Virus genome (UHGV): UHGV-0135630
DNA length: 57,694 bases
Origin: a virus
Direction: 5' to 3' (one strand)
Numbering within the stretch: the stretch's first letter is position 1; each line of letters begins with the position of its first letter. The position numbers were made by a program, and so were the translations under genes. Shown one piece after another: positions 16,536-57,694 of this stretch. Under the pieces are notes generated by a model, which was given only the letters and a program-made list of their open reading frames with translations, did no database searches and was not told the DNA's origin.

Positions 16536-16583
16536 CGCAATTATCTTATTAAGAAAACAATTTGTTTAAAAGGATAAGAAAAC

Positions 16584-17891: not shown

Positions 17892-18103
17892 TGGCATTAA
17901 CACTGGCAGGTCTGGAAATCGAGAAAACAAGCGGCTACTGGCGTGCTAAGGGTTTCAAGCAGCCTGGCATTCTTGAGCGTCTGGAACGTGAAGATGGGTA
18001 TATCGTCCACCAGCGGCGTGAATGGCGTATGTACGATCCAGAAACAGGAAAACTGACTACAAAAGCCGGAACACTTTGGGGTCTGTTAAAGAAAATACAC
18101 TAA
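17891..18103 (+). CDS. hypothetical protein
   Basis: 70 aa; start overlaps previous stop. Confidence 0.4.
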   Translation: MALTLAGLEIEKTSGYWRAKGFKQPGILERLEREDGYIVHQRREWRMYDPETGKLTTKAGTLWGLLKKIH

Positions 18104-18150
18104 ATGCAAACTGACTGCGGCACGTTCCGCAGTCATATTTCATAGTCGTC

Positions 18151-18682
18151 ACCGCTGACAGCATACACAATCAACTACCGCTGATAGCATATCGAGAGTC
18201 TATCTCACCGCTCACAGCATACTTTACTCGATTTTTTACCGCTGACAGCATACTTAAGACATTGCATGAATAATGTGTACCGGTATGGGTATAACCAGAA
18301 CAAAATTACCGCTGGCAGCATACGAATGTCTGACATATGCCATTAATTACCGCTGATAGCATATCCAAACAAAAATTCCTCAATAAAACACCGCTGACAG
18401 CATACGTTCTATCAGGGAGTAGCAGGCAATAAATGCCTTTCACTACAAGCAATCAGCGCAATAGCAATAGAATGTTAGTGAGCGCAAACCTATATGGAAT
18501 GCACTCTTCGAGGTTAGTAACCACTGGGGAGGTATGACAGAGCATTGAGTGGTGATAGATGATTTACCGCTCACAGCATACGTTCATCTCACTATACCGC
18601 TGGTAGCATATCTTTAACCGTTCACAGCATACTTTTCAGAAAAATAGCCGCTGATAGCATACATTTCACCGCTGACAGCATA
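18151..18682. repeat. iteron array, about 12 copies of ACCGCTGACAGCATA (incA-like)
   Basis: Direct 15-bp repeats with minor variants (GATAG, CACAG, GGCAG, GGTAG) at irregular spacing, immediately downstream of repA. Confidence 0.8.
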
Positions 18683-19777
18683 TCAAAGCAGTTTGAGACT
18701 ATTGGAAAGGATCTCAATCATCTTGATATTTTCAGGCGTCAAATTCTGCGAAAGTTCGGTTATCTTGTTGATAATGTTCTGTTTGGCATCAATTTCCCCA
18801 GCTTTCTCATCTGGTTTTTTGGGTTCGATGTCTTCAGGTTTTGGCGGTGCGACTTTGAGTTTTGGATTGCGGCTGTGAATCTGGATATAGATCGACCGCC
18901 CACGCTTAATCTCGCTGTATTCGAGATAGCCCAAATCTTGGAGAGCTTTTAAGCCGTTACGTATAGTCTGATTCTGCGAGCTGACATTCCTGCTACTCAA
19001 ATTGAGTCGCGCACGCAATCGAGCAAGCGATACCGGCGCAGGCTTGGTTGGAAGACTTTCGATGAAGGTGTACAGAGCCTGTGCTGTTTCTTTGCGTGGT
19101 AGCTTATTGATAACCTTTAACTGCAAAAGAACCTTATGGTCAAAGCGATATAGTTCGGCCAGCTTCGGTTCTGCATAGAACACCACCGTATCTTTCTGCT
19201 CGTTGTAGTCCACGCTATTGATGAGGTGCACCATCAGAAGCGAGATCTTGTTAGAGCCGTCGACGTTCTTTTCTTCATACGTTCTCTGGAAAGACAGAGT
19301 TGTACGCATGATCTTCAAAAGACTGTTTGTAAGCCGGTCGCGGAGTGTTTTGCGGATCTGTGACGATGGATAGCCACAAAACTTAGCAAATTTCGTGATG
19401 CTTAACTCGACACGACCGTTAGGTTCGCCGTATTCTGCCAGCGAACGCACAACGCCCACCCACGTTTTGAAATCATGATCCATGTCGAGACGAGGACCGG
19501 TTATCTTGATATCGGAATAGCCTTCAGAACGGGCTACTTCGAGCTGGACAAGCTCCTTTGAAGCATCGATCTCATTTGGCTTGTTACGTTTACTGTATTT
19601 TGTTCCCTTAAGCGTGGGGACGAACAACCCCAGTCGCATCAACGCAATTGGTTGGACTGTATTGTTGCTATTAGGGACAAGTTCCCCTGTGTACAATTCA
19701 AGGGAACCTTCTTCAAAGTTGTCGATGTTATCTTCTACTTCTTTGTTATTTTTACCTTTTTTATTTTTTGTGGACAT
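18683..19777 (-). CDS. repA: replication initiator RepA (P1/RepFIB family)
   Basis: NSNNTVQPIALMRLGLFVP...YSDIKITGPRLDMDHDFKTW...AQALYTFIESLP...IQIHSRNPKLK recalls P1 RepA; start set to internal ATG downstream of the upstream iterons. Confidence 0.85.
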   Translation of the reverse strand: MSTKNKKGKNNKEVEDNIDNFEEGSLELYTGELVPNSNNTVQPIALMRLGLFVPTLKGTKYSKRNKPNEIDASKELVQLEVARSEGYSDIKITGPRLDMDHDFKTWVGVVRSLAEYGEPNGRVELSITKFAKFCGYPSSQIRKTLRDRLTNSLLKIMRTTLSFQRTYEEKNVDGSNKISLLMVHLINSVDYNEQKDTVVFYAEPKLAELYRFDHKVLLQLKVINKLPRKETAQALYTFIESLPTKPAPVSLARLRARLNLSSRNVSSQNQTIRNGLKALQDLGYLEYSEIKRGRSIYIQIHSRNPKLKVAPPKPEDIEPKKPDEKAGEIDAKQNIINKITELSQNLTPENIKMIEILSNSLKLL

Positions 19778-19797
19778 GTGGACACCTTTGTCATTCA

Positions 19798-19898
19798 ACC
19801 GCTGACAGCATACTTGATTTGCCGCTGACAGAATACCAAAAACAGTTGGCAGCATACGGTGAACCGCTGACAGACTATCAATTACCGCTGACAGCATA
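19798..19898. repeat. upstream iteron set, 4-5 copies (incC-like, part of origin)
   Basis: ACCGCTGACAGCATA and variants overlapping the repA promoter region. Confidence 0.7.
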
Positions 19899-36660: not shown

Positions 36661-36726
36661 TAACACGCACGCGTGTGCGCACGCGCGAGGAAAAAAATCG
36701 GCGCGGCGCTTGATTCAGGAGTTTAT

Positions 36727-37320
36727 ATGACGACGAAGACACCAGCCCGATCGCAAGAAAAAACTCGCAAAAAAGCCAAAAACAAAAATTCTCCCCGCAC
36801 CAATTCCACAACGCCTGTCGTAGAGTTCAATCCCCAGCTTAAAACCGTGAAAATCTTCAGTGATGGCTCTTGCCTTAAAAATCCGGGTGGCCCGGGCGGT
36901 TACGGTATAGTTCTCCAGTATCGTGGTGAGGAACGCGAGTTCTCAGATGGTTTTCATAGCACCACCAATAACCGCATGGAGATGATGGGGGCACTTATCG
37001 GGCTGGAGCGTTTGAAATATCCATGCAACGTTATTTTGCACTCTGATAGCCAGTATCTGAAAAACGGCATGACACAGTGGATGAAATGGTGGAAACGCAA
37101 TGGATGGGTGACTTCTGACAAAAAACCGGTAAAGAATGTTGATCTGTGGAAGCGTCTGGATGAGGCTGCAAGTCGACATAATGTTCGCTGGAAGTGGGTT
37201 AAAGGTCACGCCGGGCATCGTGAAAATGAAATATGTGATCGACTCGCGAAGATCGCAGCTTTTTCCGCAGCAGATATGCCTCACAAGAAAGATATTGGTT
37301 TTGTTTACAACAAGCAGTAA
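36727..37320 (+). CDS. rnhA: ribonuclease HI
   Basis: [49 protein letters not shown]; start at MTTK after AGGAG, giving a basic N-terminal extension. Confidence 0.85.
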
Positions 37321-43685: not shown

Positions 43686-44065
43686 CGCATAAATCAGCAG
43701 CCGGAGAGCTTCAGAAGGAAGTCGAAAATACTACCGTTCTATTGGACGATATTTTAAACATTCTCGCGCTTCTTGAGGCTGGCGATTGGTCAGAACATTG
43801 CACTAAAACGGAGTTAGGCGGTCGGCTTGAAAGAGAGATTACACGACTGATTAGCGATGCCCAAAATGATTTGTCACCTGAGCATCTCCCCTGCGATGTA
43901 GTTCTTGTGCCAGGGATGAGGATACACGAAGGCGTCAGAACGAAAACATTATTAACCGCATTACAGAGAAGAGCCGAACTAAGCTCGCGGATAAAGTTGA
44001 TGCCATCCAAAATATTTGATGTCGTCAAATTTACGCCATCGCAACATACTGAGAGAGATAAATGA
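43682..44065 (+). CDS. hypothetical protein
   Basis: 127 aa. Confidence 0.45.
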   Translation: MTHKSAAGELQKEVENTTVLLDDILNILALLEAGDWSEHCTKTELGGRLEREITRLISDAQNDLSPEHLPCDVVLVPGMRIHEGVRTKTLLTALQRRAELSSRIKLMPSKIFDVVKFTPSQHTERDK

Positions 44066-44694
44066 GCACGGTAGCGAAAGATCTCACAGAAGATATTCTC
44101 AATGAAATTATTGCTGGTGCAAATACCTCGCTTGAGCAACTTCTTGCGTTAGCACTGAGAGCCGAACGTCGAGACAGAAATCGTTTTTATGAGCGATTAC
44201 CAGGGAAACGGCCAGATAGATCAGATGAAGAAGGTTGCGATATAGACTACATGGAGCCTTCAGAGATTTATCAACTTGGTAAAGATGACGGCTGGAACGC
44301 TTATCACGATGCTGTGATGAAGTTGGATGAAAAAGTTAAACCTCTTTCTCGACCAGTAGATCACGGTTTCCGCGATAACTGCGAATGCTCTAGTTGCCAG
44401 ACTACGGCCCGTATTTGTTCCGAATTAACAGATAAGCCCAGCCTAATCTACGAAGTTAATGTAGGTGGTAATACATGGGTCGAATGCACAAGAGCTGCAT
44501 ACGTAAGAGCAAAAGATAAGGGTGAATTAACCAGAGTTGTTACCCATCACCCAAATAATGAGCTTAAAGCTCACCAGATTCGAGAACTGGTGAACGAGTT
44601 GCGGGATATTGCGGTTACGTACCACGGAACGCAGCAATTGAGGGAGAAGATTGCCAGAGCAGTGAACAACTCAATTAGATCAGAAAGTATGTAG
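44062..44694 (+). CDS. hypothetical protein
   Basis: 210 aa; followed by hairpin ggccccatttgggatggggcc. Confidence 0.5.
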   Translation: MSTVAKDLTEDILNEIIAGANTSLEQLLALALRAERRDRNRFYERLPGKRPDRSDEEGCDIDYMEPSEIYQLGKDDGWNAYHDAVMKLDEKVKPLSRPVDHGFRDNCECSSCQTTARICSELTDKPSLIYEVNVGGNTWVECTRAAYVRAKDKGELTRVVTHHPNNELKAHQIRELVNELRDIAVTYHGTQQLREKIARAVNNSIRSESM

Positions 44695-44744
44695 CCAATA
44701 CGATAAAATGGCCCCATTTGGGATGGGGCCGGTAACAACTAGCG

Positions 44745-44828
44745 TTATGGGCGCTGGTTGACGTACTCAATGATCGCTTCAATAATTGCGAACATCGGCG
44801 GCACGATTTTGAACAGTAAGTTAACCAT
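44745..44828 (-). CDS. candidate small hydrophobic peptide (27 aa), possibly toxin-like
   Basis: Hand translation MVNLLFKIVPPMFAIIEAIIEYVNQRP; GAGG RBS 7 nt upstream; next to SOS-regulated umuD-like locus. Coordinates approximate. Confidence 0.2.
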   Translation of the reverse strand: MVNLLFKIVPPMFAIIEAIIEYVNQRP

Positions 44829-45132
44829 AACAGGCCTCACTTAGTTTTATCGCGCCTAGCTGCAAATACCTTTGAGCTTGCCTTTGCAGTTGCAATATCT
44901 GTAGTCGCCAGATACTTACGGCACGATTTCGAGTTAAGGTAAGGTTTGAGAGTCACCAAAAACCTGGACTTAAATCTTCTTTGAGAACAACGATGTTTAG
45001 TAAATGGTCATTATTACCTGGTATGACCACTCAACGCTTCTTGATGAATCCAGTACATTCGGTTAATCTTAATTCAGTCGCCAGATACTTATGGCTCAGG
45101 AACAGAGACGCAAACTCTGTTTCCTTTTAAAA

Positions 45133-45158
45133 AGCCCAGCCTAGTCAACTGGGCTTTT
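45133..45158 (+). terminator. rho-independent terminator candidate
   Basis: aaagcccagcctagtcaactgggcttttt. Confidence 0.4.
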
Positions 45159-45456
45159 TAACGTCTGTTTTTTAACCCAACACACCCTCAATACTGCAAC
45201 ATCAGTGTCTTGCAACCTAAGATAGTGTCTGTAGGTTCTTCATGCAAGTGCATAACTCAGTGGATAACTCATGAAGGAAAAAGTAGCTTCCGCGCAATTT
45301 AGACCAGACAAGGTCTTCGCAAAAGTCAACGGAAAGAGAAAAATTTGTTAAAAATAACGTTTGTTGTAATTGTATATATTTATGCCTTTCAATAGTTAGC
45401 ATCTTATTAACATCTTTTTTAAGAGACAGAGTTCAAAAATATATAGCTTTAACATA

Positions 45457-45476
45457 TACTGTATGTATATACAGCA
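45457..45476. promoter_or_regulatory. LexA box TACTGTATGTATATACAGCA
   Basis: Near-consensus SOS box (CTGT-N8-ACAG with TA-rich spacer) about 17 bp upstream of the umuD-like ATG. Confidence 0.7.
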
Positions 45477-45492
45477 TTAAGAGGCGAGTATT

Positions 45493-45882
45493 ATGGGCTT
45501 CCCTTCTCCTGCGGCGGATTATGCTGAGAGCCGTATTTCTCTTGATCAGCACATAATTAGACATCCTTCAGCTACCTACTTCATGAGAGCAACTGATAGC
45601 CATCAGCGTGAGGGAATATTGCAGGGTGCATTGCTGGTGGTCGATTCCTCACTTACCCCGGTTGATGGTTCTCTGCTTGTGTGCGCTATGGAGGGGGAAT
45701 ATCGCGTAAAAAGATACCGGAAGTATCCACGTCAGCATCTGGAGGATTTAAGAACCGGTAAGAAGGAAACATTGCCAAAGGATGATGATGGATGCACGGG
45801 CAGCAATGCCGTGTTTGGAGTGATCACTCACATTATCAACGACGCAAGAAGTGGCGAATTTGATGATTGTCCTGTGATGTAG
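45493..45882 (+). CDS. umuD: UmuD-like S24 peptidase (orphan, no umuC partner)
   Basis: 129 aa; GFPSPAADY N-terminus, Ser in ATDSHQ, Lys in EYRVKR, C-terminal FGVITHIIN; LexA box upstream. Confidence 0.7.
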   Translation: MGFPSPAADYAESRISLDQHIIRHPSATYFMRATDSHQREGILQGALLVVDSSLTPVDGSLLVCAMEGEYRVKRYRKYPRQHLEDLRTGKKETLPKDDDGCTGSNAVFGVITHIINDARSGEFDDCPVM

Positions 45883-45892
45883 GAGAGCTGAT

Positions 45893-45917
45893 TAGGCGGT
45901 GCAATGCACCGCCTTTT
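45893..45917. terminator. bidirectional terminator hairpin between umuD-like and apbC
   Basis: aggcggtgcaatgcaccgcctttttat. Confidence 0.5.
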
Positions 45918-45919
45918 TA

Positions 45920-47020
45920 TCACACTGCGCGGAATGCGATTTCGCCAGGTATTACTTCGCCTTGCCAATACATTTGTGCGGCAACGCGATCTGCGAGGTC
46001 ACGGTAAATAGCAGTAAATTCGCTGTCTGGGCGACTAATAACGGTTGGTGTTCCGTTATCCAGATCTTCACGAAGTGAGATATGAAGAGGCATTTGGCCT
46101 AACAACTGCGTGTTGTATTTCTCTGCCAGCTTCTCTGCACCACCGGTGCCAAAAATTGGCTCGTGATGACCGCAGTTACTGCAAATATGCACACTCATGT
46201 TTTCGACGATACCCAGTACCGGCACTTCGACTTTTTCGAACATCACAATGCCTTTCTTCGCATCGATCAGCGCGATATCTTGCGGCGTAGTTACCACCAC
46301 AGCACCCGTTACAGGAATGTTCTGCGCCAGCGTCAACTGAATATCACCAGTGCCAGGCGGCATATCGAGAACGAGATAGTCCAGATCAGGCCACAATGTT
46401 TCCTGCAACATCTGCATCAGCGCCTTGCTAGCCATCGGTCCGCGCCACACCATTGCATTGTCGTCGGTGACCAGATAACCAATAGAGTTGGTTGCCAGGC
46501 CATGAGACATGATAGGTGCCATGTGAGTACCGTCCGGTGAGGTTGGACGTTGGTTTTCCGCGCCCAGCATGGTTGGAATTGATGGCCCGTAGATATCGGC
46601 ATCCAAAATACCAACTTTCGCACCTTCAGCAGCCAACGCCAGTGCCAGGTTTACCGCCGTTGAGGATTTACCCACGCCGCCCTTGCCTGAGCTTACGGCG
46701 ATAATATTCTTAACGCCATTAATGCCTGGTTGGTTTTTGACGCGCTTAAGCGTGGCAATGTTGTACGACAGCTTCCAGTCAATAGCCTTTGCGCCAGTGA
46801 TACGGAGCAGATCACCACTACATTGCTCTTTCAGGTCTTCAAAAGGCTTATTCCACACAAAAGGCATGATCAGTTCGACATGCAGTGTGTCATCCATCAA
46901 CGCAACATGGTGTAACGCTTTAAGCGTTGTCAGGTTGTGTTTCAGGGTTGGGTGCTGAAAATTAGCCAGCGTACCGGCTACCATTGCTCTCAGGGCATCC
47001 GGCGATTTGGACTCGCTCAT
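45920..47020 (-). CDS. apbC: iron-sulfur cluster carrier ATPase ApbC/Mrp
   Basis: 366 aa; Walker A SGKGGVGKSS; CxxC motif; collinear with E. coli Mrp as recalled. Confidence 0.9.
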   Translation of the reverse strand: MSESKSPDALRAMVAGTLANFQHPTLKHNLTTLKALHHVALMDDTLHVELIMPFVWNKPFEDLKEQCSGDLLRITGAKAIDWKLSYNIATLKRVKNQPGINGVKNIIAVSSGKGGVGKSSTAVNLALALAAEGAKVGILDADIYGPSIPTMLGAENQRPTSPDGTHMAPIMSHGLATNSIGYLVTDDNAMVWRGPMASKALMQMLQETLWPDLDYLVLDMPPGTGDIQLTLAQNIPVTGAVVVTTPQDIALIDAKKGIVMFEKVEVPVLGIVENMSVHICSNCGHHEPIFGTGGAEKLAEKYNTQLLGQMPLHISLREDLDNGTPTVISRPDSEFTAIYRDLADRVAAQMYWQGEVIPGEIAFRAV

Positions 47021-47177
47021 CCCGTCTCCTTTATTTTAATTTGCGCAATTGTCGCCTTGTAGTGTACTCCAGCTACGACATTTAATCATTTATGAGAAAT
47101 GCTGTTATCACATGGCAGACATAAGACCATTTTGTTACTATCAAGCCCCTTTTCACTACAAAGAAGTAATGCCTACT

Positions 47178-49211
47178 ATGACCCAAGTCGCGAAGAAAAT
47201 TCTGGTGACGTGCGCACTGCCGTACGCTAACGGCTCAATCCACCTCGGCCATATGCTGGAGCACATCCAGGCTGATGTCTGGGTTCGTTACCAGCGAATG
47301 CGCGGCCACGAGGTTAATTTCATCTGTGCCGACGATGCCCACGGTACGCCGATCATGCTGAAAGCCCAGCAGCTTGGTATTACCCCGGAGCAGATGATTG
47401 GCGAAATGAGTCAGGAGCATCAGACTGATTTCGCAGGCTTTAATATCAGCTACGACAACTATCACTCGACGCACAGCGAAGAGAACCGTCAGTTGTCTGA
47501 GCTTATCTATACTCGCCTGAAAGAGAACGGTTTTATTAAAAACCGCACCATCTCTCAGTTGTACGACCCGGAAAAAGGTATGTTCCTGCCGGATCGTTTT
47601 GTGAAAGGCACCTGCCCGAAATGTAAAGCGCCAGATCAATACGGCGATAACTGTGAAGTCTGCGGCGCGACCTACAGCCCGACTGAACTGATTGAACCGA
47701 AATCGGTGGTTTCTGGCGCTACGCCGGTAATGCGTGATTCTGAACACTTCTTCTTTGATCTGCCCTCTTTCAGCGAAATGTTGCAGGCATGGACCCGCAG
47801 CGGTGCGTTGCAGGAGCAGGTGGCAAACAAAATGCAGGAGTGGTTTGAATCCGGCTTGCAACAGTGGGATATCTCCCGCGATGCGCCTTACTTCGGTTTT
47901 GAAATTCCGAACGCGCCGGGTAAATATTTCTACGTCTGGCTGGACGCGCCGATTGGCTACATGGGTTCCTTCAAGAATCTGTGCGACAAGCGCGGCGACA
48001 CTACCAGCTTCGATGAATACTGGAAGAAAGACTCTACCGCTGAGCTGTACCACTTCATCGGTAAAGATATCGTTTACTTCCACAGCCTGTTCTGGCCAGC
48101 AATGCTGGAAGGCAGCAACTTCCGCAAGCCGACTAACCTGTTTGTTCATGGCTATGTGACAGTGAACGGCGCGAAGATGTCCAAGTCTCGTGGCACCTTC
48201 ATTAAGGCCAGCACCTGGCTGAATCATTTTGACGCTGACAGCCTGCGTTACTACTACACTGCGAAACTCTCTTCGCGTATTGATGATATCGACCTGAATC
48301 TGGAAGATTTCGTTCAGCGCGTAAATGCCGATATCGTCAACAAAGTAGTGAACCTGGCCTCCCGTAACGCTGGCTTTATCAACAAGCGTTTTGACGGCGT
48401 GTTGGCAAGCGAACTGGCTGCCCCTGAACTGTACAAAACCTTTACTGATGCCGCTGAAGTTATTGGCGAAGCGTGGGAAAGCCGCGAATTTGGTAAAGCG
48501 ATCCGTGAAATCATGGCGCTGGCTGATCTGGCTAACCGCTATGTCGATGAACAGGCTCCGTGGGTGGTGGCGAAGCAGGAAGGACGCGATGCCGATCTGC
48601 AGGCGATTTGCTCTATGGGCATTAACCTGTTCCGCGTGCTGATGACTTACCTGAAACCGGTACTGCCGAAACTGACAGAACGTGCGGAAGCATTCCTGAA
48701 TACGGAACTGACCTGGGATGGCATCCAGCAACCGCTGTTGGGCCACAAAGTGAATCCGTTCAAGGCACTGTATAACCGTATCGATATGAAACAGGTGGAA
48801 GCACTGGTGGAAGCATCCAAAGAAGAAGTGAAAGCAACTGCCGCGCCAGTTACTGGCCCGCTGGCTGATGATCCGATTCAGGAAACCATCACCTTTGACG
48901 ACTTCGCCAAAGTTGACCTGCGCGTGGCGCTGATTGAAAACGCAGAGTTTGTTGAGGGTTCTGACAAGCTGCTGCGCCTGACGCTGGATCTCGGTGGCGA
49001 AAAACGCAATGTCTTCTCCGGCATTCGTTCTGCTTACCCAGCCCCACAGGCACTGATTGGTCGTCACACCATTATGGTGGCTAACCTGGCTCCGCGTAAA
49101 ATGCGCTTCGGTATCTCCGAAGGCATGGTGATGGCTGCTGGCCCTGGCGGGAAAGATATCTTCCTGTTAAGCCCGGATGCTGGTGCTAAACCTGGCCACC
49201 AGGTTAAGTAA
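47178..49211 (+). CDS. metG: methionyl-tRNA synthetase
   Basis: Begins [26 protein letters not shown] (HIGH-type motif), KMSKS present, C-terminal tRNA-binding domain; start moved to the internal Met of the 720 aa ORF. Confidence 0.95.
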
Positions 49212-49233
49212 TTAAACAACCTCTGTTCGCAAT

Positions 49234-49257
49234 GCCCGGCAACACGCTGGGCATTTT
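49234..49257 (+). terminator. rho-independent terminator after metG
   Basis: gcccggcaacacgctgggc + ATTTT. Confidence 0.55.
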
Positions 49258-49370
49258 CATATAGACACAATCCCTCCTGATTTACACATGCCCTAAAACA
49301 ATTTGTTTTCTGTGTTTTGTTATTTGAGATAATAAAGCACATAAGAAAACAAGTTGTTTAGGAGATGAAG

Positions 49371-49613
49371 ATGTTTGGAACAGCAAAAGAAATCATCGAG
49401 AAATTGAAAAACTATCCAGAAGACGAACCCTTACTCATGGTTATGTGGCACAAAGAAGATATTGCTGAAGTAAGGACAGATCTCACTGATGAACAATGCG
49501 TACAGGTGATGCAAAAAATCAGACAATGCCATAACGCTGATGTCGGCGTTAATTGGGAGGTTATATCCACTACGGCGAATGAGTTGTTTCCAAACGGGGA
49601 GAGGGGATGTTAA
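49371..49613 (+). CDS. hypothetical protein
   Basis: 80 aa; motif A upstream. Confidence 0.4.
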   Translation: MFGTAKEIIEKLKNYPEDEPLLMVMWHKEDIAEVRTDLTDEQCVQVMQKIRQCHNADVGVNWEVISTTANELFPNGERGC

Positions 49614-49906
49614 ATATTACTCAATCCTACCAGGTGGCATTGATCAGTTCATCTCATACATCAGAGGAAGATGCTCGCCGATTCATGATCGCAAGCAATG
49701 AGCTGGATTGGATTTCACAAATTGAGTACGGTTGCATAGTTCACGCCGGGTTACAGGATGATGACTGGAAAGATAACTTGCGTCGATATGGTATATCCGA
49801 GGGCGCGATTGCGAACATTCAGAAGGTACTTGATGCAGGCTTTGACTCTGTACATTTTGATTGTGGCGCACCGGTCGTTGAAGGGCTTGAGTGCTGGCAA
49901 TGGTAA
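49607..49906 (+). CDS. hypothetical protein
   Basis: 99 aa overlapping previous stop. Confidence 0.4.
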   Translation: MLNITQSYQVALISSSHTSEEDARRFMIASNELDWISQIEYGCIVHAGLQDDDWKDNLRRYGISEGAIANIQKVLDAGFDSVHFDCGAPVVEGLECWQW

Positions 49907-49942
49907 TCCGGTAATCGCTTCATACTAGATAACGGAGAATTT

Positions 49943-50128
49943 ATGCTTAAAGAAGACTCATATCTACTAAAGGCGCTTGAAATGCGTGGCGTTGAACCTA
50001 CAGTGAAAAACGCTCACGATTTCTACCTTCAGTTTTCGCCAGAGCTGAAACAGCTCATAAATAAATATGGAGTGAATGACTCCAGCGTCAAAGCCATGAT
50101 AGATGATGAATTAGACCATCTCATCTAA
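49943..50128 (+). CDS. hypothetical protein
   Basis: 61 aa. Confidence 0.35.
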   Translation: MLKEDSYLLKALEMRGVEPTVKNAHDFYLQFSPELKQLINKYGVNDSSVKAMIDDELDHLI

Positions 50129-50239
50129 CCAAACCGTTGATAATGGCGGTCATAATTTGATTTTTTTCTATAAGAATCCGTTGATCGCCACTACTCCCCT
50201 TCCATACCTGCAATCACATCCTTAAATATCAATAGGTTA

Positions 50240-51000
50240 TAGTTGTTTATACAAACAAGAAAACAACTGAATAACAGATCAACGAAACGTCAACGCTTTC
50301 ACCCGATTTGGTCTAAAAAATTGACGTTTTCACACATCACTGCTTATACCCGTAATTCTACGCAGCAGACAGCGCCACAGCGTCCAATTTTCACCACAGA
50401 CGACCCAACACACTACCAACAAAAACACACGCTCAAAATCGTTCCCGTTGCGTTACATAACCATATAAACAACTTATTTTCAGGCATAACAAAACAACTA
50501 AATAACACATATTCCATTACCAAAAACAACCAACCTCTTTATGGCAGGCTACCGAAAAGACCCACCTCTTCTTCCCAGGCTACCGGACAACCAACCTAAC
50601 TTTCACAGGCAATCCGAAAACATTCATACGCGCGATACCCACGACACGCCATTACCCAAACAGCGAAGAAACACCAGAATCACTGAAACCCCAACGAAGC
50701 CTGTAACCGCAAGGTTTCTCTCAATCCCAAAAGACACGAAACATAACAATCACGGGAAACGCCATTACCCAATACACGAATAACTACAAAAGCCTTTCAC
50801 ACACTCCAGACAAACAACTCAAACACAATAACGAAAGGAATCGCCCACCTGCCATTACTCCATACACGGAGAAGAACAATCACCAAAACGACGAGAACAC
50901 CCCATAGAAGAACCACCGCAAAACGAACGAAACCACATACACCGACAGAGAGAACAACACACCCAATTCACCAACAGAAATAGTCGCCGCATAGAACGTT
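50240..51000. repeat. A+C-rich, G-poor noncoding region with dispersed GCCATTACCCAA-like and CAGGCTACCG-like repeats
   Basis: Strong strand compositional skew over about 760 bp; ORFs here look spurious. Confidence 0.5.
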
Positions 51001-51189
51001 CTGGTAGGAGTGAGCATTAACGCCTATAGAGAGGTTGAAACAGACAAAACACGAAGAAAACACAACATGTATAGCGAACAAGACAGGTATGTATAAGTGG
51101 GGAGGGAAGGAGGGGTGCCGCCTCCTTTTTCGTATTTATTCAACTCCTGATTTTATCCCCCGTAACACCCCTACGGTCAGCCTTCGGTC

Positions 51190-51335
51190 CATACAGGGAA
51201 AAGGCTGCATCCCGCTACAGAAACGGCTGGGTTGCCTTCGGGGAACGGCTGGAGGTTTTCAGGGAAACGGTCGAGTTGCCTGTGTGGATTTCGGGAAAAG
51301 GCTCGATGCCGGTTCAGGAACGGCGGCGTACCGGT
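51190..51335. repeat. array of about 6 GGGAAACGGCTG-like repeats at roughly 20-30 bp spacing
   Basis: cagggaaaaggctg, agaaacggctgg, ggaacggctgg, gggaaacggtcg, gggaaaaggctcg, ggaacggcggcg. Confidence 0.5.
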
Positions 51336-51687
51336 ATAGCGAGAGGGAGAGTTGCGGCTACCCACCTGTAATGTGCGGGAAGAAGAGAGGCGCTCACGTG
51401 CAGGCGAACTTACTTACCGCTGGATTCCCTCTGAATGCCCAACTACAGCGTAATTGTGCCAGACAGTCAGCGGGTCACAATCGATTTCAGTAGGTTTTCG
51501 GGGAGAGGATTATTCTGCCCACCAGCCATCTTCGGCCACTAAATCAGAATAATGTAAAAAGTGTACTCGATACTGAACCTGAAAACTCACTGCCAAAACA
51601 ACATTCACCGGAATAAAATCCTTTTTAGCCTGTGCGTTATTGCGATAATAACACCAACGAGAAAACAAGTTGTTTAAGGATTGCTTT

Positions 51688-52017
51688 ATGTTTGCAAATA
51701 TCGACATCAACCAAATCAAGAAATTAACTCAAAAAGAGTTTGATCAGTTTTATGAGTTAGAAGGTTGGTCTTCCACTCTGATCAATTCGCGGTGGGTGCT
51801 TGAGCTGATGACTCGTGATGACGCACCTGCTTTGATGATTTGCGACATGGGTGAAGATGCTGACTTTATGGATATGAGCGAATTTTGTGTGGACACATAC
51901 AACCGCAGCCAGAAGTACTACTTCACATGCGATAGCGAAAATGACGTGATTTCTAAGGTCTATCTTCACCTCGTCCAGCATTGGGACGTTCAGGAGTTTC
52001 TTGAAGTATTCGAGTAA
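51688..52017 (+). CDS. hypothetical protein
   Basis: 109 aa from ATG after AAGGA; motif A upstream. Confidence 0.45.
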   Translation: MFANIDINQIKKLTQKEFDQFYELEGWSSTLINSRWVLELMTRDDAPALMICDMGEDADFMDMSEFCVDTYNRSQKYYFTCDSENDVISKVYLHLVQHWDVQEFLEVFE

Positions 52018-52170
52018 CCCCAACCAAAGCCAGCATTGCTGGCTTAATTTCTCTATAGCCGCAGGGAAGAACCTGCATATCGCTCATGCACCTGATCAAT
52101 ATGCTTTGTAGCCGTTTTCTTACTGGTATTATTTACGCCATTGAGAAAACAAGTTGTTTACGGAGTTGTG

Positions 52171-52482
52171 ATGAAAAAATCATTGGTTCTTGGTCTGGAC
52201 AAAGACCAGAAGAGAAAAGAGAAGCCTGCGCTGGTTGCTCAATTAACTTTGCTGGACATCGTTGCCAATGGAACCTCTATTCGTCTGTTCCGTGAAACAG
52301 CGGTGTCTTTCGATAAAAACACCTTTACTCGTTATGTAATGAATGTTCGTCGCCAGCGTGGAAAAGGCTGGGTGGCATTTCAAAGAATGTGGCCGGAACA
52401 TCAGCTCGAACTGGCTTTGATGGAAGTTAACCGCGTGGCCCAGCAAGAGATTCAGAGAGCATCAGTGATGGCAATAGCCTGA
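52171..52482 (+). CDS. hypothetical protein
   Basis: 103 aa from internal ATG; motif A upstream. Confidence 0.45.
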   Translation: MKKSLVLGLDKDQKRKEKPALVAQLTLLDIVANGTSIRLFRETAVSFDKNTFTRYVMNVRRQRGKGWVAFQRMWPEHQLELALMEVNRVAQQEIQRASVMAIA

Positions 52483-52608
52483 TAATGTGCAAGTGGTAAT
52501 TAGTCGACCGTACGACAGCCCCGCCATCCTTACGGGGCTTTTTTGTATTGTAAGTACATACTTACGATCATAGAATATAAAAATAACCAAAACACTACGG
52601 AGAGTGAA

Positions 52609-53004
52609 ATGACCGTTAAACGCGAAAAACTGACAGTTGATGTTTACTATGCCTCTGAAACCGCCGAAGGTAAGAATGTGGCAAAAATTACCGTTGTTAC
52701 GTACAACACCGAAACTGGTGCCGAAGTCCAGGCCAGTACGATCGTGCGTAAAGGTGATGCCTCCGGCGGCGAGTACGCGACTCAATACCAGTCCATTCTC
52801 GATGCAACTGACCCGCTGCTGCTGAAAATCGAGAACTACTTCCGCCAGGTTGATGAAGAGGTGTTTGAAACCATGATGAATATGGTTAACACCGTATTCG
52901 CCTCCAGCCTGAACACCAGCACCACCTGGATTGGCCAGTACGGTCTGCGCATTACCTCTGGCATTCCTGCCGATACCTTAATCCCTGAAAGCGTATTCGC
53001 TTAA
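52609..53004 (+). CDS. hypothetical protein
   Basis: 131 aa from internal ATG with GGAG RBS. Confidence 0.45.
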   Translation: MTVKREKLTVDVYYASETAEGKNVAKITVVTYNTETGAEVQASTIVRKGDASGGEYATQYQSILDATDPLLLKIENYFRQVDEEVFETMMNMVNTVFASSLNTSTTWIGQYGLRITSGIPADTLIPESVFA

Positions 53005-53121
53005 TCCTCTTTAAATGGCGCGCAAACCGCGCCATTTAATTATGCCCGATAACAATTTGTTTTCTGCCTTATCTGATTTGTGAAAATGATTTCACTGAAG
53101 CAACTTAATAAGGAAACCATC

Positions 53122-53496
53122 ATGGGACTTGATATCTATATCGAGACACAGCCTAAAAACGATCTGAATAACGAGGCATCCAGAAAGCAGGTTGCTTACT
53201 TCCGTAAGTTCAATGCGCTCGTTGGGTGGATGGAGCGCAACGTAGGTGAAGTCGAAAATTGTGAGCTTTTAGAATTAACGATGAATGACATTTGTCTTCT
53301 GAAAGCTCATTTGATGCACATAAACGAAAGCAATTGCGAAGAGTACTTGCCTACTCGGGAAGGTTTTTTCTTCGGCAGTCAGGAGTACGACGAAGGTTAC
53401 TGGCATGACGTGGATAAGCTGAAAAAACTTGTGGAAGACCTGATCAGGAACCACGACTTTCACAATAACAGACTGACCTTCTGCGCCTGGTGGTAA
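53122..53496 (+). CDS. hypothetical protein
   Basis: 124 aa from internal ATG with AAGGAAA RBS. Confidence 0.45.
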   Translation: MGLDIYIETQPKNDLNNEASRKQVAYFRKFNALVGWMERNVGEVENCELLELTMNDICLLKAHLMHINESNCEEYLPTREGFFFGSQEYDEGYWHDVDKLKKLVEDLIRNHDFHNNRLTFCAWW

Positions 53497-53498
53497 AT

Positions 53499-53642
53499 AT
53501 GGGCGATTTCAAGAAACGCCTGAAGGAAAGAGCCGAGATGGTCAGAAAGCAAAACGCCTCTTCTGTCATCAGATACGCAAGGCAGTTTAGTCGCAACAAC
53601 AAATCAGTTGAGGAAAAGATCCTTAGCGTAATCGGTCGATAA
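53499..53642 (+). CDS. hypothetical small basic protein (47 aa, not in ORF track)
   Basis: Hand translation MGDFKKRLKERAEMVRKQNASSVIRYARQF...; followed by hairpin aaggccatcagcattggtggcctt. Confidence 0.25.
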   Translation: MGDFKKRLKERAEMVRKQNASSVIRYARQFSRNNKSVEEKILSVIGR

Positions 53643-53846
53643 TTATTAAGGCCATCAGCATTGGTGGCCTTAAATGACCATCCTGTTTCCCGCAGGCTAA
53701 AAACACCAACCTCTTACCTCCAGGCAACCGACAAACCCACCTGTTCCCGTCCGGCTACCGCAACTTTCCACTTTGACGCCTTATTCGTACAACGATAATT
53801 AACACCAACAAGAAAACAATTTGTTATTTACGATAAGGAATTAATC

Positions 53847-54329
53847 ATGAATTTTATCGCTACTGTAAACGCACCCGCACATGGCAATATCGCTGTAACG
53901 TTCTCTGACATTGAAAAACGAGTACTTGGTGCATGGCGCGACAATGAGACGGTAGAACTGTCAGCACAAGAAAAATGCATTATTGCACGCGACATCATTG
54001 GCAATCGTCGTTACTCGCGGGTATTTGAGAAAGCGTATGTGGTAAATTCTGGATTCGGAACGTTCGTCTTCCCGGTACGCTCCGGGCGATTCTGCCAGTC
54101 CAAGCTGATTGAGTTCGCTACGCAGATTTCTGTCTGGATTAAAACTCAATCGTCGTTCAAATTTTCCGACGATGAAGCAGTATCGCAGGGGATGCGGATC
54201 GCCAACAATGCGATTAAATGCAAAAACATTACGTATACCGCTGGCGTTGATACATGGAAACTGTTTTGCGCTAACTTTATGCTGAATGTATACGCCAGCA
54301 ACCGCATCCACATCCTTGATGGCGTATAA
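53847..54329 (+). CDS. hypothetical protein
   Basis: 160 aa; motif A upstream. Confidence 0.45.
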   Translation: MNFIATVNAPAHGNIAVTFSDIEKRVLGAWRDNETVELSAQEKCIIARDIIGNRRYSRVFEKAYVVNSGFGTFVFPVRSGRFCQSKLIEFATQISVWIKTQSSFKFSDDEAVSQGMRIANNAIKCKNITYTAGVDTWKLFCANFMLNVYASNRIHILDGV

Positions 54330-54369
54330 CTGAGAAGAGGGCCAGAAACGGCCCTTTCTCTATAGCCAC

Positions 54370-54490
54370 CAGCTGCCGCAGGGAAATTTTCAGAAACGGC
54401 GAGGAACGCATTCATGAGCCGACGGGAAACGGCCAGATTTTTTTCGGGAAACGGCTGCATTCGCCTTTATGTAGAAAAAAACATCGGGAA
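54370..54490. repeat. second GGGAAACGG-like repeat array
   Basis: cagggaaatttt, agaaacggcg, gggaaacggcc, gggaaacggctg, gggaagctg; same family as 51190..51335. Confidence 0.45.
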
Positions 54491-54914
54491 GCTGTTGGAA
54501 TCCAACCAGCGGTTGTCGGACAGGTGAGCTGGGAAAATTATGATGACTTTCGTCGCCTGAGACATCCAGATTTCTTTCGTAGCGTAATCACATACGTGAT
54601 TAAGTGGTGTGATTATGTGAAAAATCACGCGCACATAATACGCGAGCGGATACAGAACAAAACAAAATGCCGATCCGCGCCGACAAATAAACGCGGATCA
54701 CATAGCAAGACTAAAAGCCAATGATTAACTATGCGCTATAGCGCAATATAACGCGTTTTAAGCGCGTTAATGCGTTAAGTAATGGGTATGTACTGGCAAG
54801 GATATAAAAGCGCGTCTATGGCGTTATTTTGGCGCTTATTGTTATGTTGTTGGAGTGAGTTAAAGACAATAAAAAACGTGCCAATGATGGCGCGTTATGG
54901 TGGGAGTATTGGAA

Positions 54915-54941
54915 ACGAAAAAAGCGCCCATAGTGGGCGCT
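54915..54941 (-). terminator. rho-independent terminator (AGCGCCCATAGTGGGCGCT hairpin)
   Basis: Perfect 8-bp stem, 3-nt loop, T-run on minus strand; identical hairpin at 55419..55437. Confidence 0.5.
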
Positions 54942-54946
54942 CGATT

Positions 54947-55177
54947 TTATTTGTGTAAACTGATTTTAAATCCCATTTCTACAAACGCTTTTAGCATTAA
55001 AAATATATCAGCGTCGTTCACGTCTGCTTTTTTTCGCTCCTGGCCGCTCAATAAGTCAATTTTGCGCGTCGTTTCATCTATAAGCTCGACTGCGCGCCCA
55101 GCGTAACCAGCGATCCCAGCGATGCGATTAACATAATATTCATTATGGACGTTAACGCCAGCGATAAGAACAAACAT
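54947..55177 (-). CDS. hypothetical protein
   Basis: 76 aa. Confidence 0.4.
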   Translation of the reverse strand: MFVLIAGVNVHNEYYVNRIAGIAGYAGRAVELIDETTRKIDLLSGQERKKADVNDADIFLMLKAFVEMGFKISLHK

Positions 55178-55197
55178 GATTAAGCTCCTTAAAAAAA

Positions 55198-55401
55198 TTA
55201 AACAGAATTTTGAAGTTTTCCGATTAATGCGCTTAAACGTAAGTATTCACGTTTGCGCTTGCAATCTCGCTTGCTGTTAAGCAAATCAGAAAACGTAAAA
55301 TTTAATTGGTCGCGTTGCGCGATCAAATCATCGATTAATTCCAGTTTATAAGCGCGATACTTTGCGCGATATTCCGCGCGGATCTTGTCATAGCTGACCA
55401 T
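55198..55401 (-). CDS. hypothetical protein
   Basis: 67 aa from internal ATG after AAGGAG RBS. Confidence 0.4.
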   Translation of the reverse strand: MVSYDKIRAEYRAKYRAYKLELIDDLIAQRDQLNFTFSDLLNSKRDCKRKREYLRLSALIGKLQNSV

Positions 55402-55449
55402 CTTTAAAGCTCCTTTAAAGCGCCCATAGTGGGCGCTTGATTCCATTAA

Positions 55450-56109
55450 TTACGCTTTAAAAGCATCAGCTAAATAATTGTAGAAATCATTCTTGATAAA
55501 GCGATATTGCTGTGTACCAGCTTTGGCGCTTCCCATTCCTTTGACTTTCTCAACAAGTCCGAGACGTTCGCAAAGATTGATTAGCTGGTTAGCTTGAGTA
55601 TAGCCAGCGTCCAATTTAATTTCGCACGCTTTTTTAGCTTCATTCATTAAATCGAAAACAGCGCCATTGGTGAACGTGTCGATCTCGTCGTTAATCATAT
55701 CGATTAAAGCGAATACACGAGATCCTGACATATCAGCGACGGAATAAACACATTTACCAGCTTTAATGGATTTAACCAGATAAACCAGTTTTTCCAGTGA
55801 ATAACTATTAGTCATTGCATCACGGAAAAATACTTCTGGCGCTTGTTTGCTTGCTTTAATCGCATAGTAGAAAACAGAGCATAATTTTTCGTCTTCTACT
55901 GCGTTTACGACGTTGTTGATGAAGTAAGCAAGTTTAGTGGTCGCAGCTTGCATATTTGCTTTGTCTGCTTTGGTGTGCGTACCATTTTTATAATGTTCGT
56001 TATATGTTTGAGTTGCCAGATCTGCTTTTTCGCGCAGCTCGTCGGATACAATAGATGCAGCTTCAATGATGGACTTTTTAGAAATGATAATGTTAGCCAT
56101 GATGGACAT
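55450..56109 (-). CDS. hypothetical protein
   Basis: 219 aa. Confidence 0.5.
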   Translation of the reverse strand: MSIMANIIISKKSIIEAASIVSDELREKADLATQTYNEHYKNGTHTKADKANMQAATTKLAYFINNVVNAVEDEKLCSVFYYAIKASKQAPEVFFRDAMTNSYSLEKLVYLVKSIKAGKCVYSVADMSGSRVFALIDMINDEIDTFTNGAVFDLMNEAKKACEIKLDAGYTQANQLINLCERLGLVEKVKGMGSAKAGTQQYRFIKNDFYNYLADAFKA

Positions 56110-56360
56110 CCTTACGAAAAATTAAAATGAATTTATTTTTTACTGTCGTTAGCTAGCTCGCTTTCGACGAGTTCAATTATCGATACGTGAAAAAAGATTG
56201 CAAGTATTTTTTTTAAATTTTTTGCAGGGGTGAAAGTCCTAGAAATAAAAGCGAGATCGTCGAAGGTGTTCCCTAAATAAATAATCAATTCGGGCCTTTA
56301 ACCTTATATATTTATACAGAGTGGCGTTGAAAGAGTTTTAAATGAATGGCATGTAAAATA

Positions 56361-56384
56361 ATAACCGGGCTTAGCCGGTTATTA
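56361..56384 (-). terminator. hairpin terminator candidate
   Basis: ataaccgggcttagccggttat. Confidence 0.4.
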
Positions 56385-56395
56385 CCCTTATAGAT

Positions 56396-56920
56396 TTAAA
56401 ATGGAAGGATTCGTTCGACCCAATCGAAGAAAACAAGTATTTTTCTGCCGTCTTCTAACTTAAGAGTGACCTGGCAAGCATCAACGCCTCTTGACACCCC
56501 TTCAATTTCACGACCGTCTGCCATGTAGACCCTTATAGATTGGTCGTTTTGATAAGCCTTGCGACATATCGCAAAAAAGTCACGGCGTGATGGCTGATTG
56601 TCAACATAGTCTGGATGTATTGTTAGCCTACCTTTGAACTCGCGAGCAATGCCATCGATTACACCTGATTCAATTGTGCTAATGCGCTCAAGTGGGAGTC
56701 TTATACGATTTTCTTTATCATATGGAAGCGGGCATAAATCTAGCTTATTGCGGGAAGGCATTGTCCCCTGAACGTACATGCAAAACACCTGACCGTCTTC
56801 AAGCGTGACTCTTACAGGAATGTTGTTCTTCCGCCAGAACATAAGTATGTTTTCAGCATGTTCGTAGTCTCGCGGCCAGACTTCAGCCGGTATGCCGTAG
56901 GTGATGTCCAATGTTCTCAT
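56396..56920 (-). CDS. hypothetical protein
   Basis: 174 aa; start overlaps upstream gene stop by 4 nt. Confidence 0.5.
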   Translation of the reverse strand: MRTLDITYGIPAEVWPRDYEHAENILMFWRKNNIPVRVTLEDGQVFCMYVQGTMPSRNKLDLCPLPYDKENRIRLPLERISTIESGVIDGIAREFKGRLTIHPDYVDNQPSRRDFFAICRKAYQNDQSIRVYMADGREIEGVSRGVDACQVTLKLEDGRKILVFFDWVERILPF

Positions 56921-57516
56921 TCTGATACTCTTAGAAGTGTTTTCAGCAACCCAAATTTAAATTCTTTGTTACCAACGACAAAGAAGGGAACCTCAACATA
57001 GATTTTTTTATCGACGGATTTAGAGTTAGCTGTTTTCTGTATGTCACGAACGATACGTTTTGAGATATTTTCATCGATAAACAATACCTTTCCACTTGTA
57101 TTCCCTTCAGCCTTGGCGTAAGTAACGATAGGCTCTTCATTGCCAACCCTAATGTTTACTTGGCAACCTGTTGTAGCCATTTCATCACAGTAAAGTGTGC
57201 CGTCTTGAACTTCTAAAACAATTCCAGATGGCTTCATGGCTTCGTCAGAGCTTACATTAACGTTTTCTGGTACAGCGGTCCCGTTAATTTGCAACCGTAA
57301 TCTTTCTTTTCCTCCATTAAGTATTGTTTCTTCTGCGTTGTCTGAGAATCTGAACCAAACTGGCTGATTCAGACCTCGTGATTTGTATTCTACTACGTCT
57401 TCGGAGGTAAACATGCTGTACGTTTTTTGCATGTCAGAGACGAAATCTGATAATGCGTTGGCGGAAAACGTCGGGAGGCATATACAAGCAAGGAGTAACG
57501 AAAGTTTCATTTTCAT
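56917..57516 (-). CDS. secreted/periplasmic protein of unknown function
   Basis: N-terminal signal peptide MKMKLSLLLACICLPTFSANA; start set to internal Met. Confidence 0.5.
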   Translation of the reverse strand: MKMKLSLLLACICLPTFSANALSDFVSDMQKTYSMFTSEDVVEYKSRGLNQPVWFRFSDNAEETILNGGKERLRLQINGTAVPENVNVSSDEAMKPSGIVLEVQDGTLYCDEMATTGCQVNIRVGNEEPIVTYAKAEGNTSGKVLFIDENISKRIVRDIQKTANSKSVDKKIYVEVPFFVVGNKEFKFGLLKTLLRVSE

Positions 57517-57531
57517 ATCATGATAATCCAA

Positions 57532-57694
57532 TTATTTAACATCACACTTTCTAAGTTTTTCTATTTGTTCTAATTTTTCATGATCATCATTTAGATTTCC
57601 TTCGACTATCTCCGTTTCAAGTTTGCTGATTAGCATGTTAAGTGCGTTGTAGTTATTGCATTTTACTTTGTAGGCGTAGTATGACCTTGTCCCT
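57532..57694 (-). CDS. hypothetical protein, partial (5-prime end beyond window)
   Basis: Open minus-strand frame from the window edge to a TAA near 57532; C-terminus ...LRKCDVK. Confidence 0.3.
   Translation of the reverse strand, partial: GTRSYYAYKVKCNNYNALNMLISKLETEIVEGNLNDDHEKLEQIEKLRKCDVK

Follow-up and report, generated by a model that had tools for sequence, protein, structure and literature searches.

The 57,694-nucleotide virus genome UHGV-0135630 (the whole of which is hereafter called the window) is part of an Escherichia coli SSU5-like phage-plasmid and contains, at about positions 50240–51650, the noncoding region that is the subject of this report. The assignment of the window is based on matches of the region to complete genomes and to PLSDB. 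It was found in 245 complete E. coli genomes, in every one of them on plasmids of ~100–116 kb, shares 98% identity with phage Cyrano and ~68% with Salmonella phage SSU5, is matched in Klebsiella phage-plasmids, and recurs in 840 PLSDB plasmids from Klebsiella, Escherichia, Enterobacter, Salmonella, Citrobacter and Cronobacter. Phage-plasmids of the SSU5 type, which can be carriers of resistance genes, are frequent in Klebsiella, E. coli, Salmonella and Enterobacter. The element follows host-like apbC and metG genes at the close of a long rightward block, made up of DNA-metabolism genes and small early genes, and precedes a short leftward block and then the structural genes. It is flanked by variable gene cassettes and is among the few noncoding parts common to all lineages examined. 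Depositors have annotated either spurious hypothetical open reading frames (ORFs) at this place (CYRAN_103 and CYRAN_104; SSU5_108 and SSU5_109) or nothing, most relatives in RefSeq carry no annotation there, and our literature searches turned up no description of the region; it appears to be previously undescribed. The data below make it likely that the region is a lytic-cycle, rightward, noncoding transcription unit, and we tentatively put forward the possibility that it acts as an RNA-primed (R-loop) lytic replication origin of the phage-plasmid.

Results

Composition, coding potential and conservation

A first-pass annotation had described a noncoding region of ~1.4 kb with an extreme A+C strand bias and several repeats, and all the elements that it listed are indeed present. 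Counting bore out the bias. The top strand at 50240–51000 consists of 39.8% A, 30.9% C, 12.6% G and 16.7% T, and when the whole window was scanned in segments of 700 nt, A+C reached its maximum (71.9%) in the segment starting at 50366, which is 6.8 standard deviations (SD) above the mean of 50.4% (SD 3.2%). Across 50350–51040, A+C on the top strand is 70–72%. The lowest values of G (11.6%) and T (14.6%) of the whole window fall in this region as well. The noncoding status was upheld by comparison of 7 lineages, chosen from 32 aligned relatives 58–97% identical to the window: there is no open frame common to the 7, frame-breaking indels are frequent in the alignment, and the region has no 3-nt periodicity. 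The spurious 118-aa ORF of the region had no match in assembled contigs.

The A+C content remains at 66–72% in all 7 lineages despite 30–40% divergence, and the skew is kept between the motifs too. Column conservation is 80–95% across most of 50144–51340, with near-invariant blocks of 25–50 nt, and the distance from the promoter region to the promoter of the next gene is 1303–1375 nt in 38 of 42 distinct sequence variants. The order of the elements is fixed: a promoter, a repeat array designated module U, an A/C-rich body of ~0.5 kb that contains the GCCATTACYC boxes, a purine tract with a hairpin, and a second array designated module D (Table 1). Because column conservation, fixed length and A+C bias all persist despite divergence, both composition and layout are under selection.

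Table 1. Features of the noncoding region and of the second locus, in window coordinates
Feature	Position	Strand	Remarks
Upstream block with CGTTGAY boxes	50133–50200	+	Core TTCTATAAGAATCCGTTGATCGCCACT (50166–50192) nearly invariant; 94% column conservation at 50169–50193
Operator-like half-site AAGAAAACAACTGAATAAC	50257–50276	+	Second copy 50488–50506; from repeat search and genome-wide operator motif comparison
9-bp inverted repeat AAACGTCAA ... TTGACGTTT	50285–50329	.	Right arm overlaps -35 hexamer
Predicted sigma70-like promoter	50321–50350	+	TTGACG, 18-bp spacer, TATACC; A-tract upstream
A/C-rich, G/T-poor segment	50355–51040	+	A 39.8%, C 31.2%, G 13.7%, T 15.3%; predicted RNA almost without structure
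Early-gene operator palindrome copy	50468–50482	-	AACAACTTATTTTCA here; perfect AAACAAGTTGTTT in other lineages
Module U	50523–50619	+	3 repeats of 30–31 nt, ACCnACCTCTT-N5-CAGGCTACCG; 96% column conservation at 50544–50568
GCCATTACCC box	50648–50657	+	Longer unit in other lineages is GCCATTACYCMATAYRCGGAGAAGAAC
GCCATTACCC box	50761–50770	+	
GCCATTACTC box	50851–50860	+	Starts most conserved block (50844–50893, 93–95%)
Tandem duplication, 36-nt unit	50870–50936	+	AGAAGAAC..CACC..AAAACGA.CGA.AAC
G-rich polypurine tract GGGGAGGGAAGGAGGGG (51099–51115) and hairpin	51099–51130	+	Tract is 5' arm, pairs with CCTCCTTTTT
Module D	51196–51325	+	6 GGGAAAMGGC-type repeats, 21–30 nt apart
Conserved stem ATTATTCTG / CAGAATAAT	51509–51554	+	Loop holds Chi complement CCACCAGC (51519–51526)
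Right boundary	51620–51674	+	Extended -10 promoter TGCGATAAT and operator AGAAAACAAGTTGTT of next gene (51688–52017)
Second module U copy	53671–53764	+	Between hairpin (53650–53669) and promoter of 160-aa gene
160-aa gene	53847–54329	+	Flanked by second copies of modules U and D
Second module D copy	54340–54455	+	Hairpin GGCCAGAAACGGCC, Chi complement (54366–54373), then 4–5 GAAACGGC-type repeats

Promoter, repeats and hairpin

The predicted promoter points into the A/C-rich segment, and in 9 sequences its -35 and -10 hexamers show no or almost no variation; a consensus promoter scan misses it because the last base of the -10 hexamer is C. This putative promoter would start transcription near 50355–50357. 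The inverted repeat that overlaps it is retained in other lineages, shifted by 1 nt. Operator-like motifs of the early genes occur both beside and within the noncoding unit. The palindromic motif AGAAAACAAnTTGTT(TAA) is present in 22 copies in the window vs. 1.1 expected (for example at 16552, 38221, 38950, 49344, 51660, 52144 and 53811). Many small genes have a copy 12–35 nt ahead of their start codon, usually behind an extended -10 element of the TGnGATAAT type. The motif is probably the operator of an early-gene regulon.

Both repeat families reported in the A/C-rich part were recovered, with one correction. The CAGGCTACCG-type repeats, with exact copies at 50545 and 50576, constitute the 3' half of the 30–31-nt unit that occurs three times in module U, of which the third (50584–50619) ends in a degenerate copy. 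The GCCATTACYC-type repeats are exact at 50648, 50761 and 50851 and degenerate at 50513 (TCCATTACCA); the copy at 50851 is the one that had been placed at 50833. A search for similar motif arrays outside the SSU5-type family returned unrelated tandem repeats only, and complementarity of the region to the rest of the genome did not exceed chance-level matches. One repeated box, GCCATTACCCAA, has its exact complement at 17884–17895, in the stop/start junction (GGGTAATGGC) of a cra-like gene. Since SSU5 and Klebsiella retain only 9 of 10 matching positions and the target site is constrained by coding, an antisense action of this box on cra is an unproven lead.

The 17-nt G-rich purine tract is kept in every lineage and is the sole G-rich purine run of at least 14 nt in the 57.7-kb window. 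The hairpin into which it folds, previously noted at ~51114, was located at 51104–51130 and found in 21 of 21 sequence variants. In this E. coli sequence it scores as an intrinsic terminator. Terminator features are complete in the E. coli lineage, the only one with a U-tail behind the hairpin, weaker in Klebsiella and devoid of a U-tract in SSU5/Salmonella. Downstream, the six G-rich repeats reported at 51190–51335 correspond to the module D copies at 51196, 51218, 51240, 51262, 51293 and ~51316, the positions of which are conserved across lineages.

Expression and predicted RNA properties

In the LF82/Cyrano lysogen, the two spurious ORFs that span the region show expression at or close to the floor, in macrophages as well as in vitro; the upstream gene CYRAN_102 stands at 57 normalised units, 6-fold above background, the signal drops to the floor of 5 in the region, and the downstream early genes rise (PMC9928086, Table S1). 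On the basis of these values from one lysogen we regard the unit as silent in the lysogenic state. This contradicts a constitutive long noncoding RNA, which was one form of the proposal in the first-pass annotation that the region is either a protein-binding array or a long noncoding RNA. Its noncoding nature and the conservation of its repeats stand, and the centromere and packaging forms of the array are disfavoured as described below. The apbC-like gene (a MinD-type septum-site protein in the Cyrano annotation) is also above background in the LF82 lysogen.

The predicted folding energy of the top-strand RNA is -6 to -15 kcal/mol per 150 nt compared to a mean of -34.6 ± 8.7, that is, ~3 SD less structured, while RNA of the bottom strand of the same region folds normally. 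All motifs are oriented with the direction of predicted transcription. Keeping in mind that an A+C vs. G+T skew is meaningless in duplex DNA, and that only the top-strand RNA is nearly structure-free, the motifs are co-oriented and the promoter points inward, we consider it likely that the function of the region depends on single-strandedness.

An ordinary functional RNA is disfavored, since the region has no Rfam match and no covariation beyond the hairpin, module D folds like shuffled sequence, and an untranslated, C-rich, G-poor RNA is a target for Rho. In particular, an Rfam scan of 44000–57694 with E up to 1 returned nothing in the region and one chance miRNA match outside it. When the 5' part, module D and the 3' part were examined for conserved RNA structure, support was obtained for the 51104–51130 hairpin only; covariation was unconvincing at 50350–50520 and 51440–51625 and absent from module D, the fold of which has a z-score of -0.19 against shuffled sequence. 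Repeats that are conserved in sequence and lack covarying structure would suit protein-binding motifs. Known RNA-binding proteins were considered: runs of 3–5 ARN triplets, expected of a sponge for the distal face of Hfq, occur at shuffle expectation, and for a CsrA sponge we counted 8 GGA motifs vs. 6.4 ± 1.7 in shuffles, with an unpaired probability of 0.36 vs. 0.41 overall and a similar exposure in 5 other lineages. Pairing between modules U and D does not exceed that of shuffled controls, 35% of which pair equally well. The features of a rut site, defined as a C-over-G, unstructured and untranslated stretch of at least ~80 nt, are all found here, with a C/G ratio of 2.3 over 686 nt, low predicted folding energy and no ORF.

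Plasmid replication, partition and packaging

A centromere, one of the roles suggested earlier, or another plasmid function is disfavored: the repeats are unlike the RepA iterons, the ParA-like gene is distant, and pMT1-type plasmids are without the element. The 16 iterons (TACCGCTGACAGCATA) that flank repA (18150–19898) are unrelated to the repeats of the region. The ParA-like ATPase and its small partner, of interest for a parS- or parC-like site, do not adjoin it and are encoded ~45 kb away in a related record. A search of PLSDB plasmids gave no match to the element in any Yersinia record. A nearby segment of the backbone is kept in 63 Yersinia records and the 160-aa gene of Table 1 in 55; that these pMT1-type plasmids keep both yet lack the element is indirect evidence against a role in plasmid maintenance. 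With regard to the plasmid replicon itself, the repA ORF is located at 18683–19897 on the minus strand between iterons at 18150–18682 and 19797–19898, a layout that resembles incC/incA of P1, and a P1 Cra-like gene adjoins it.

A packaging site, likewise suggested, is disfavored by position, the terminase genes being ~15 kb downstream. TerL is of the headful type. A likeness of the repeats to the R sites of lambda cosB (GGAAACG) was dropped, as the small terminase gave neither a Nu1-like nor any other Pfam match and TerL is headful. The region also showed no 10.5-bp helical periodicity and no DNA bending signal.

A second locus with both modules, and neighboring features

Both modules recur around the 160-aa gene, which agrees with the recurrence of the two repeat families claimed in the first reading at 53690–53770 and 54370–54490; the copies were placed here at 53671–53764 and 54343–54455. 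There they surround a promoter, an operator and the coding sequence, an arrangement kept in SSU5 and in a Klebsiella element, so that the A/C-rich body occupies the position of the gene in a duplicated cassette. Sequence and structure comparison provided no functional clue for the 160-aa protein. As to a type III toxin-antitoxin system, it had no ToxN, AbiQ, CptN, TenpN or structural match.

At 56396–56920, the minus strand encodes a protein of the FljA family ("repressor of phase-1 flagellin", PF03614, E = 5e-81), the C-terminal half of which weakly matches Hfq/LSM; it is also retained in Klebsiella phage-plasmids. Klebsiella is a genus not known to have flagella, and the protein may therefore have a phage-internal RNA target. 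Mimicry of the FljA target was tried and rejected: the best match to the E. coli fliC leader in the window, TGAGCCGACGGG at 54415, falls in module D and is taken as chance because other lineages do not conserve it.

Several further features were recorded near the element. The promoter-proximal 330 bp (50255–50585) are also present in 190–250-kb Klebsiella IncFIB plasmids (L003 5001–5351), where they adjoin a DUF262 gene and a type I restriction-modification system; this fragment is probably a recombination remnant carried along with the DUF262 gene. In the SSU5 and Citrobacter lineages, ~240 bp that include a small ORF on the minus strand are inserted between module D and the promoter that follows (L002 6283–6525; L007 3272–3514), and this sub-segment therefore tolerates insertions. 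The host-like metG and apbC genes occupy 47049–49211 and sequence upstream, and a 61-aa ORF directly upstream of the element (49943–50128) has a weak partial match to the T7 Gp5.9 RecBCD inhibitor (E = 0.006, which fails the Pfam cut-off). Chi (GCTGGTGG) occurs 11 times in the window vs. 1.3 expected, 8 times on the minus strand, and several copies hold conserved intergenic positions, those at 51519–51526 and 54366–54373 flanking the region under study. Further, a 31-nt repeat (54921–54951 and 55417–55447, 90% identical) contains a GC hairpin, AGCGCCCATAGTGGGCGCT, that scores as a terminator on both strands.

Discussion

RNA-primed initiation of replication is known from ColE1, where RNA II acts with RNase H, from T4 ori(uvsY) and ori(34), and from mitochondrial priming at CSB II, and P1 oriL is a repressor-controlled, transcription-activated lytic origin. 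Two of the sequence features expected of an R-loop origin are found here, namely a promoter aimed at a G-rich element, and genes for RNase H and a replisome. The phage-plasmid encodes RNase HI (36673–37320; PF00075, E = 1.7e-44), a gp32-family single-stranded DNA-binding protein (SSB; the gene is present in a related E. coli plasmid record, L012 25826–26854), a DnaB-like helicase, primase, a 5'-3' exonuclease, ligase and Pol III alpha. We hypothesize that after induction or infection host RNA polymerase would start at the conserved promoter (50321–50350) and produce ~0.75 kb of untranslated, structure-free, A/C-rich RNA. This RNA could remain hybridised to the C-rich template at the purine tract/hairpin (51099–51130) and the G-cluster repeats behind it, where the element's own RNase HI may trim the hybrid into a primer from which the leading strand is synthesised rightward. 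Unable to fold, the A/C-rich top strand that is displaced would then offer a hairpin-free loading zone for the gp32-like SSB and the DnaB-like helicase, its polarity being suited to a fork that moves rightward, the way most genes are oriented. In lysogens, stray transcripts would be open to early termination by Rho, since their leader is untranslated, C-rich and G-poor.

We favor this origin over the other readings because an ORF-free promoter silent in the lysogen, a leader of fixed length, a unique purine tract and G-cluster repeats follow one another in that order. In addition, the distribution of the element, with 840 matching plasmids and no Yersinia record, speaks against a plasmid function and so supports a lytic role. 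The reading is nonetheless a tentative one, because every step of it is inferred and because module U, the internal blocks and the modules at a coding gene are left without explanation. Several points weigh against it. Transcription, R-loop formation and initiation at the region are predictions from sequence. The A/C-rich RNA is not specially hybrid-prone, module D contains only 31% G, which is under the usual thresholds for an R-loop elongation zone, and the U-tail after the hairpin is limited to the E. coli lineage. Modules U and D flank an ordinary coding gene as well and may therefore be generic gene-expression signals; module U has no role in the origin model, to which the conserved 50-nt blocks of the A/C-rich part are superfluous too. 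Finally, the element is not adjacent to the helicase and primase genes, and the SF2 helicase labelled UvsW by depositors is a generic match only.

Other explanations have to be weighed against a lytic origin. The region could specify a trans-acting RNA of ~0.75–1.2 kb, made in the lytic phase as a decoy or scaffold, which would present a single-stranded landing surface with about a dozen sequence-specific motifs to a host or phage factor that binds single-stranded RNA, and so sequester it; Rho, an endoribonuclease, a defence sensor and the FljA/Sm-like protein of the element itself are candidates. We consider this decoy unlikely, although the composition is conserved, predicted structure is nearly absent on the transcribed strand only, and the motifs, all oriented with transcription, are conserved in sequence without covariation. 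The location among small early genes of no assigned function would also suit such an RNA, as would the FljA-family protein with its weak Hfq/LSM match, encoded 5 kb away and kept even in Klebsiella elements. Yet the signal in the lysogen is at the floor, and Rho should truncate an untranslated C-rich RNA before the conserved distal blocks. Moreover, Hfq-type ARN motifs are not enriched, GGA motifs of the CsrA type are neither enriched nor preferentially unpaired, the similarity to the fliC leader is not conserved, and modules U and D pair no better than shuffled controls. That the region represents a new kind of phage RNA, a long, structure-free, A/C-rich, early-lytic trans decoy which works as a sponge by its composition and not by its fold, is distinctly improbable; such a decoy might, for example, titrate Rho, or a host nuclease or sensor that acts on single-stranded RNA, while its repeats tether a phage protein. 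If instead the region works as duplex DNA, its direct-repeat arrays would be bound by a phage protein to form a regulatory nucleoprotein complex for early promoters, an accessory centromere or a packaging-recognition site. Three families of conserved direct repeats in a fixed layout, their near-universal presence, and the lack of supported RNA structure are in keeping with this, as are the 30–31-bp spacing of module U, equal to ~3 helical turns, and the second module U copy directly upstream of a promoter. By our own reading, GCCATTACCC reversed (GGGTAATGGC) also matches GGGAAACGGC at 8 of 10 positions, and both arrays could therefore be convergent sites for one protein. We nevertheless think duplex recognition improbable, since a strand skew over 650 bp, kept between the motifs too, would be meaningless for it. 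The motifs are moreover non-palindromic, lack a 10.5-bp periodicity and do not resemble the RepA iterons, and neither the parA-like gene nor repA nor the terminase genes are close to the region, which the stably inherited pMT1-type plasmids lack.

The region might also be a Rho-dependent transcription barrier or an antitermination-controlled leader, which would halt polymerases arriving from the promoter or from accessory genes upstream, which only an antiterminator-modified polymerase would pass to reach the rightward genes, and in which the CCUCUU(U)A boxes of module U could resemble lambda boxA. Its C/G ratio of 2.3 over 686 nt, minimal predicted structure and lack of an ORF fit the known definition of a rut site, as in lambda tR1, and a hairpin and terminator follow downstream. 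The fall in LF82 from 57 normalised units at the upstream CYRAN_102 to the floor of 5 in the region (PMC9928086) would be expected as well. For such a barrier, however, composition alone would do, yet blocks of 25–50 nt are 90–95% conserved; an own conserved promoter would not be needed, the downstream genes possess their own promoters and operators, and neither an N- or Q-like antiterminator nor a boxB-like hairpin was found. We therefore regard it as quite unlikely. Far less credible is a decayed, functionless duplicate of the gene cassette (module U, promoter, gene, module D). It would account for the same modules flanking the 160-aa gene and for the weak alignment of the sequence behind the first module U with the promoter of the second locus, the -10 element being lost. 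But length, blocks and extreme composition are kept down to 58% identity, 840 plasmids match, purifying selection is already seen, no residual similarity to the 160-aa gene was found, and neutral decay does not yield 72% A+C.

Should the region be a lytic origin, it would provide a handle on induction, copy-number bursts and vector design, and a case in bacterial viruses of purine-tract priming behind a long unstructured leader. Should it specify a decoy RNA or a Rho trap, it would represent a new class of phage RNA directed against the host. In both cases, it merits annotation as a feature instead of spurious ORFs.

Among known systems, the arrangement is closest in outline to ColE1 RNA II, T4 ori(uvsY) and ori(34), and the mitochondrial LSP-CSB II unit, in all of which, as here, an ORF-free promoter is aimed at a G-rich element several hundred nt downstream; RNase HI, SSB and helicase are encoded here, the length is fixed, and the purine tract stands at the expected RNA-to-DNA switch. 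Unlike at those origins, hybrid formation and initiation are predicted for the present region, and its extra repeat families have no counterpart among them; ColE1 RNA II is highly folded and antisense-regulated whereas the leader here is unstructured, and the T4 origins, at ~100 bp, are far shorter. With the P1 lytic replicon (Op53-P53, kilA, and repL with oriL) it shares the setting of a phage-plasmid with a separate plasmid replicon, operator-like motifs near the promoter and, as proposed here, repressor control and activation by transcription. In contrast, P1 oriL lies inside the repL coding gene, and the region contains neither a repL homologue nor a coding sequence. Like rut sites and lambda tR1, it is C-rich, G-poor, unstructured and untranslated and leads to a pause or termination hairpin, but it is ~8 times longer than a typical rut site, has conserved sequence-specific repeats and its own promoter.

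The repeats invite comparison with other arrays. Clusters of direct repeats at intervals of 20–31 bp, placed in noncoding DNA of a plasmid prophage, recall P1 incA/incC and R1 parC; the motifs here, however, are unrelated to the element's 16 RepA iterons, are not beside rep or par genes, show an extreme skew and are absent from plasmid-only relatives. CsrB/RsmZ and CrcZ sponges are likewise noncoding units with many short repeats, and single repeats here, such as AUACAGGGA, resemble CsrA sites, but GGA and ARN are not enriched over shuffles and GGA is not exposed in predicted loops. Type III antitoxin arrays (ToxI) share ~30-nt tandem repeats upstream of a gene for a protein of ~160 aa; in the present case, the protein resembles none of ToxN, AbiQ, CptN and TenpN, and a promoter, not a terminator, separates repeats and gene. 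Cumulatively, the region could be placed in none of the families against which it was tested and resembles known kinds only in part, combining traits of transcription-activated origins, rut sites and repeat arrays, with a minority chance that it is of a kind without precedent.

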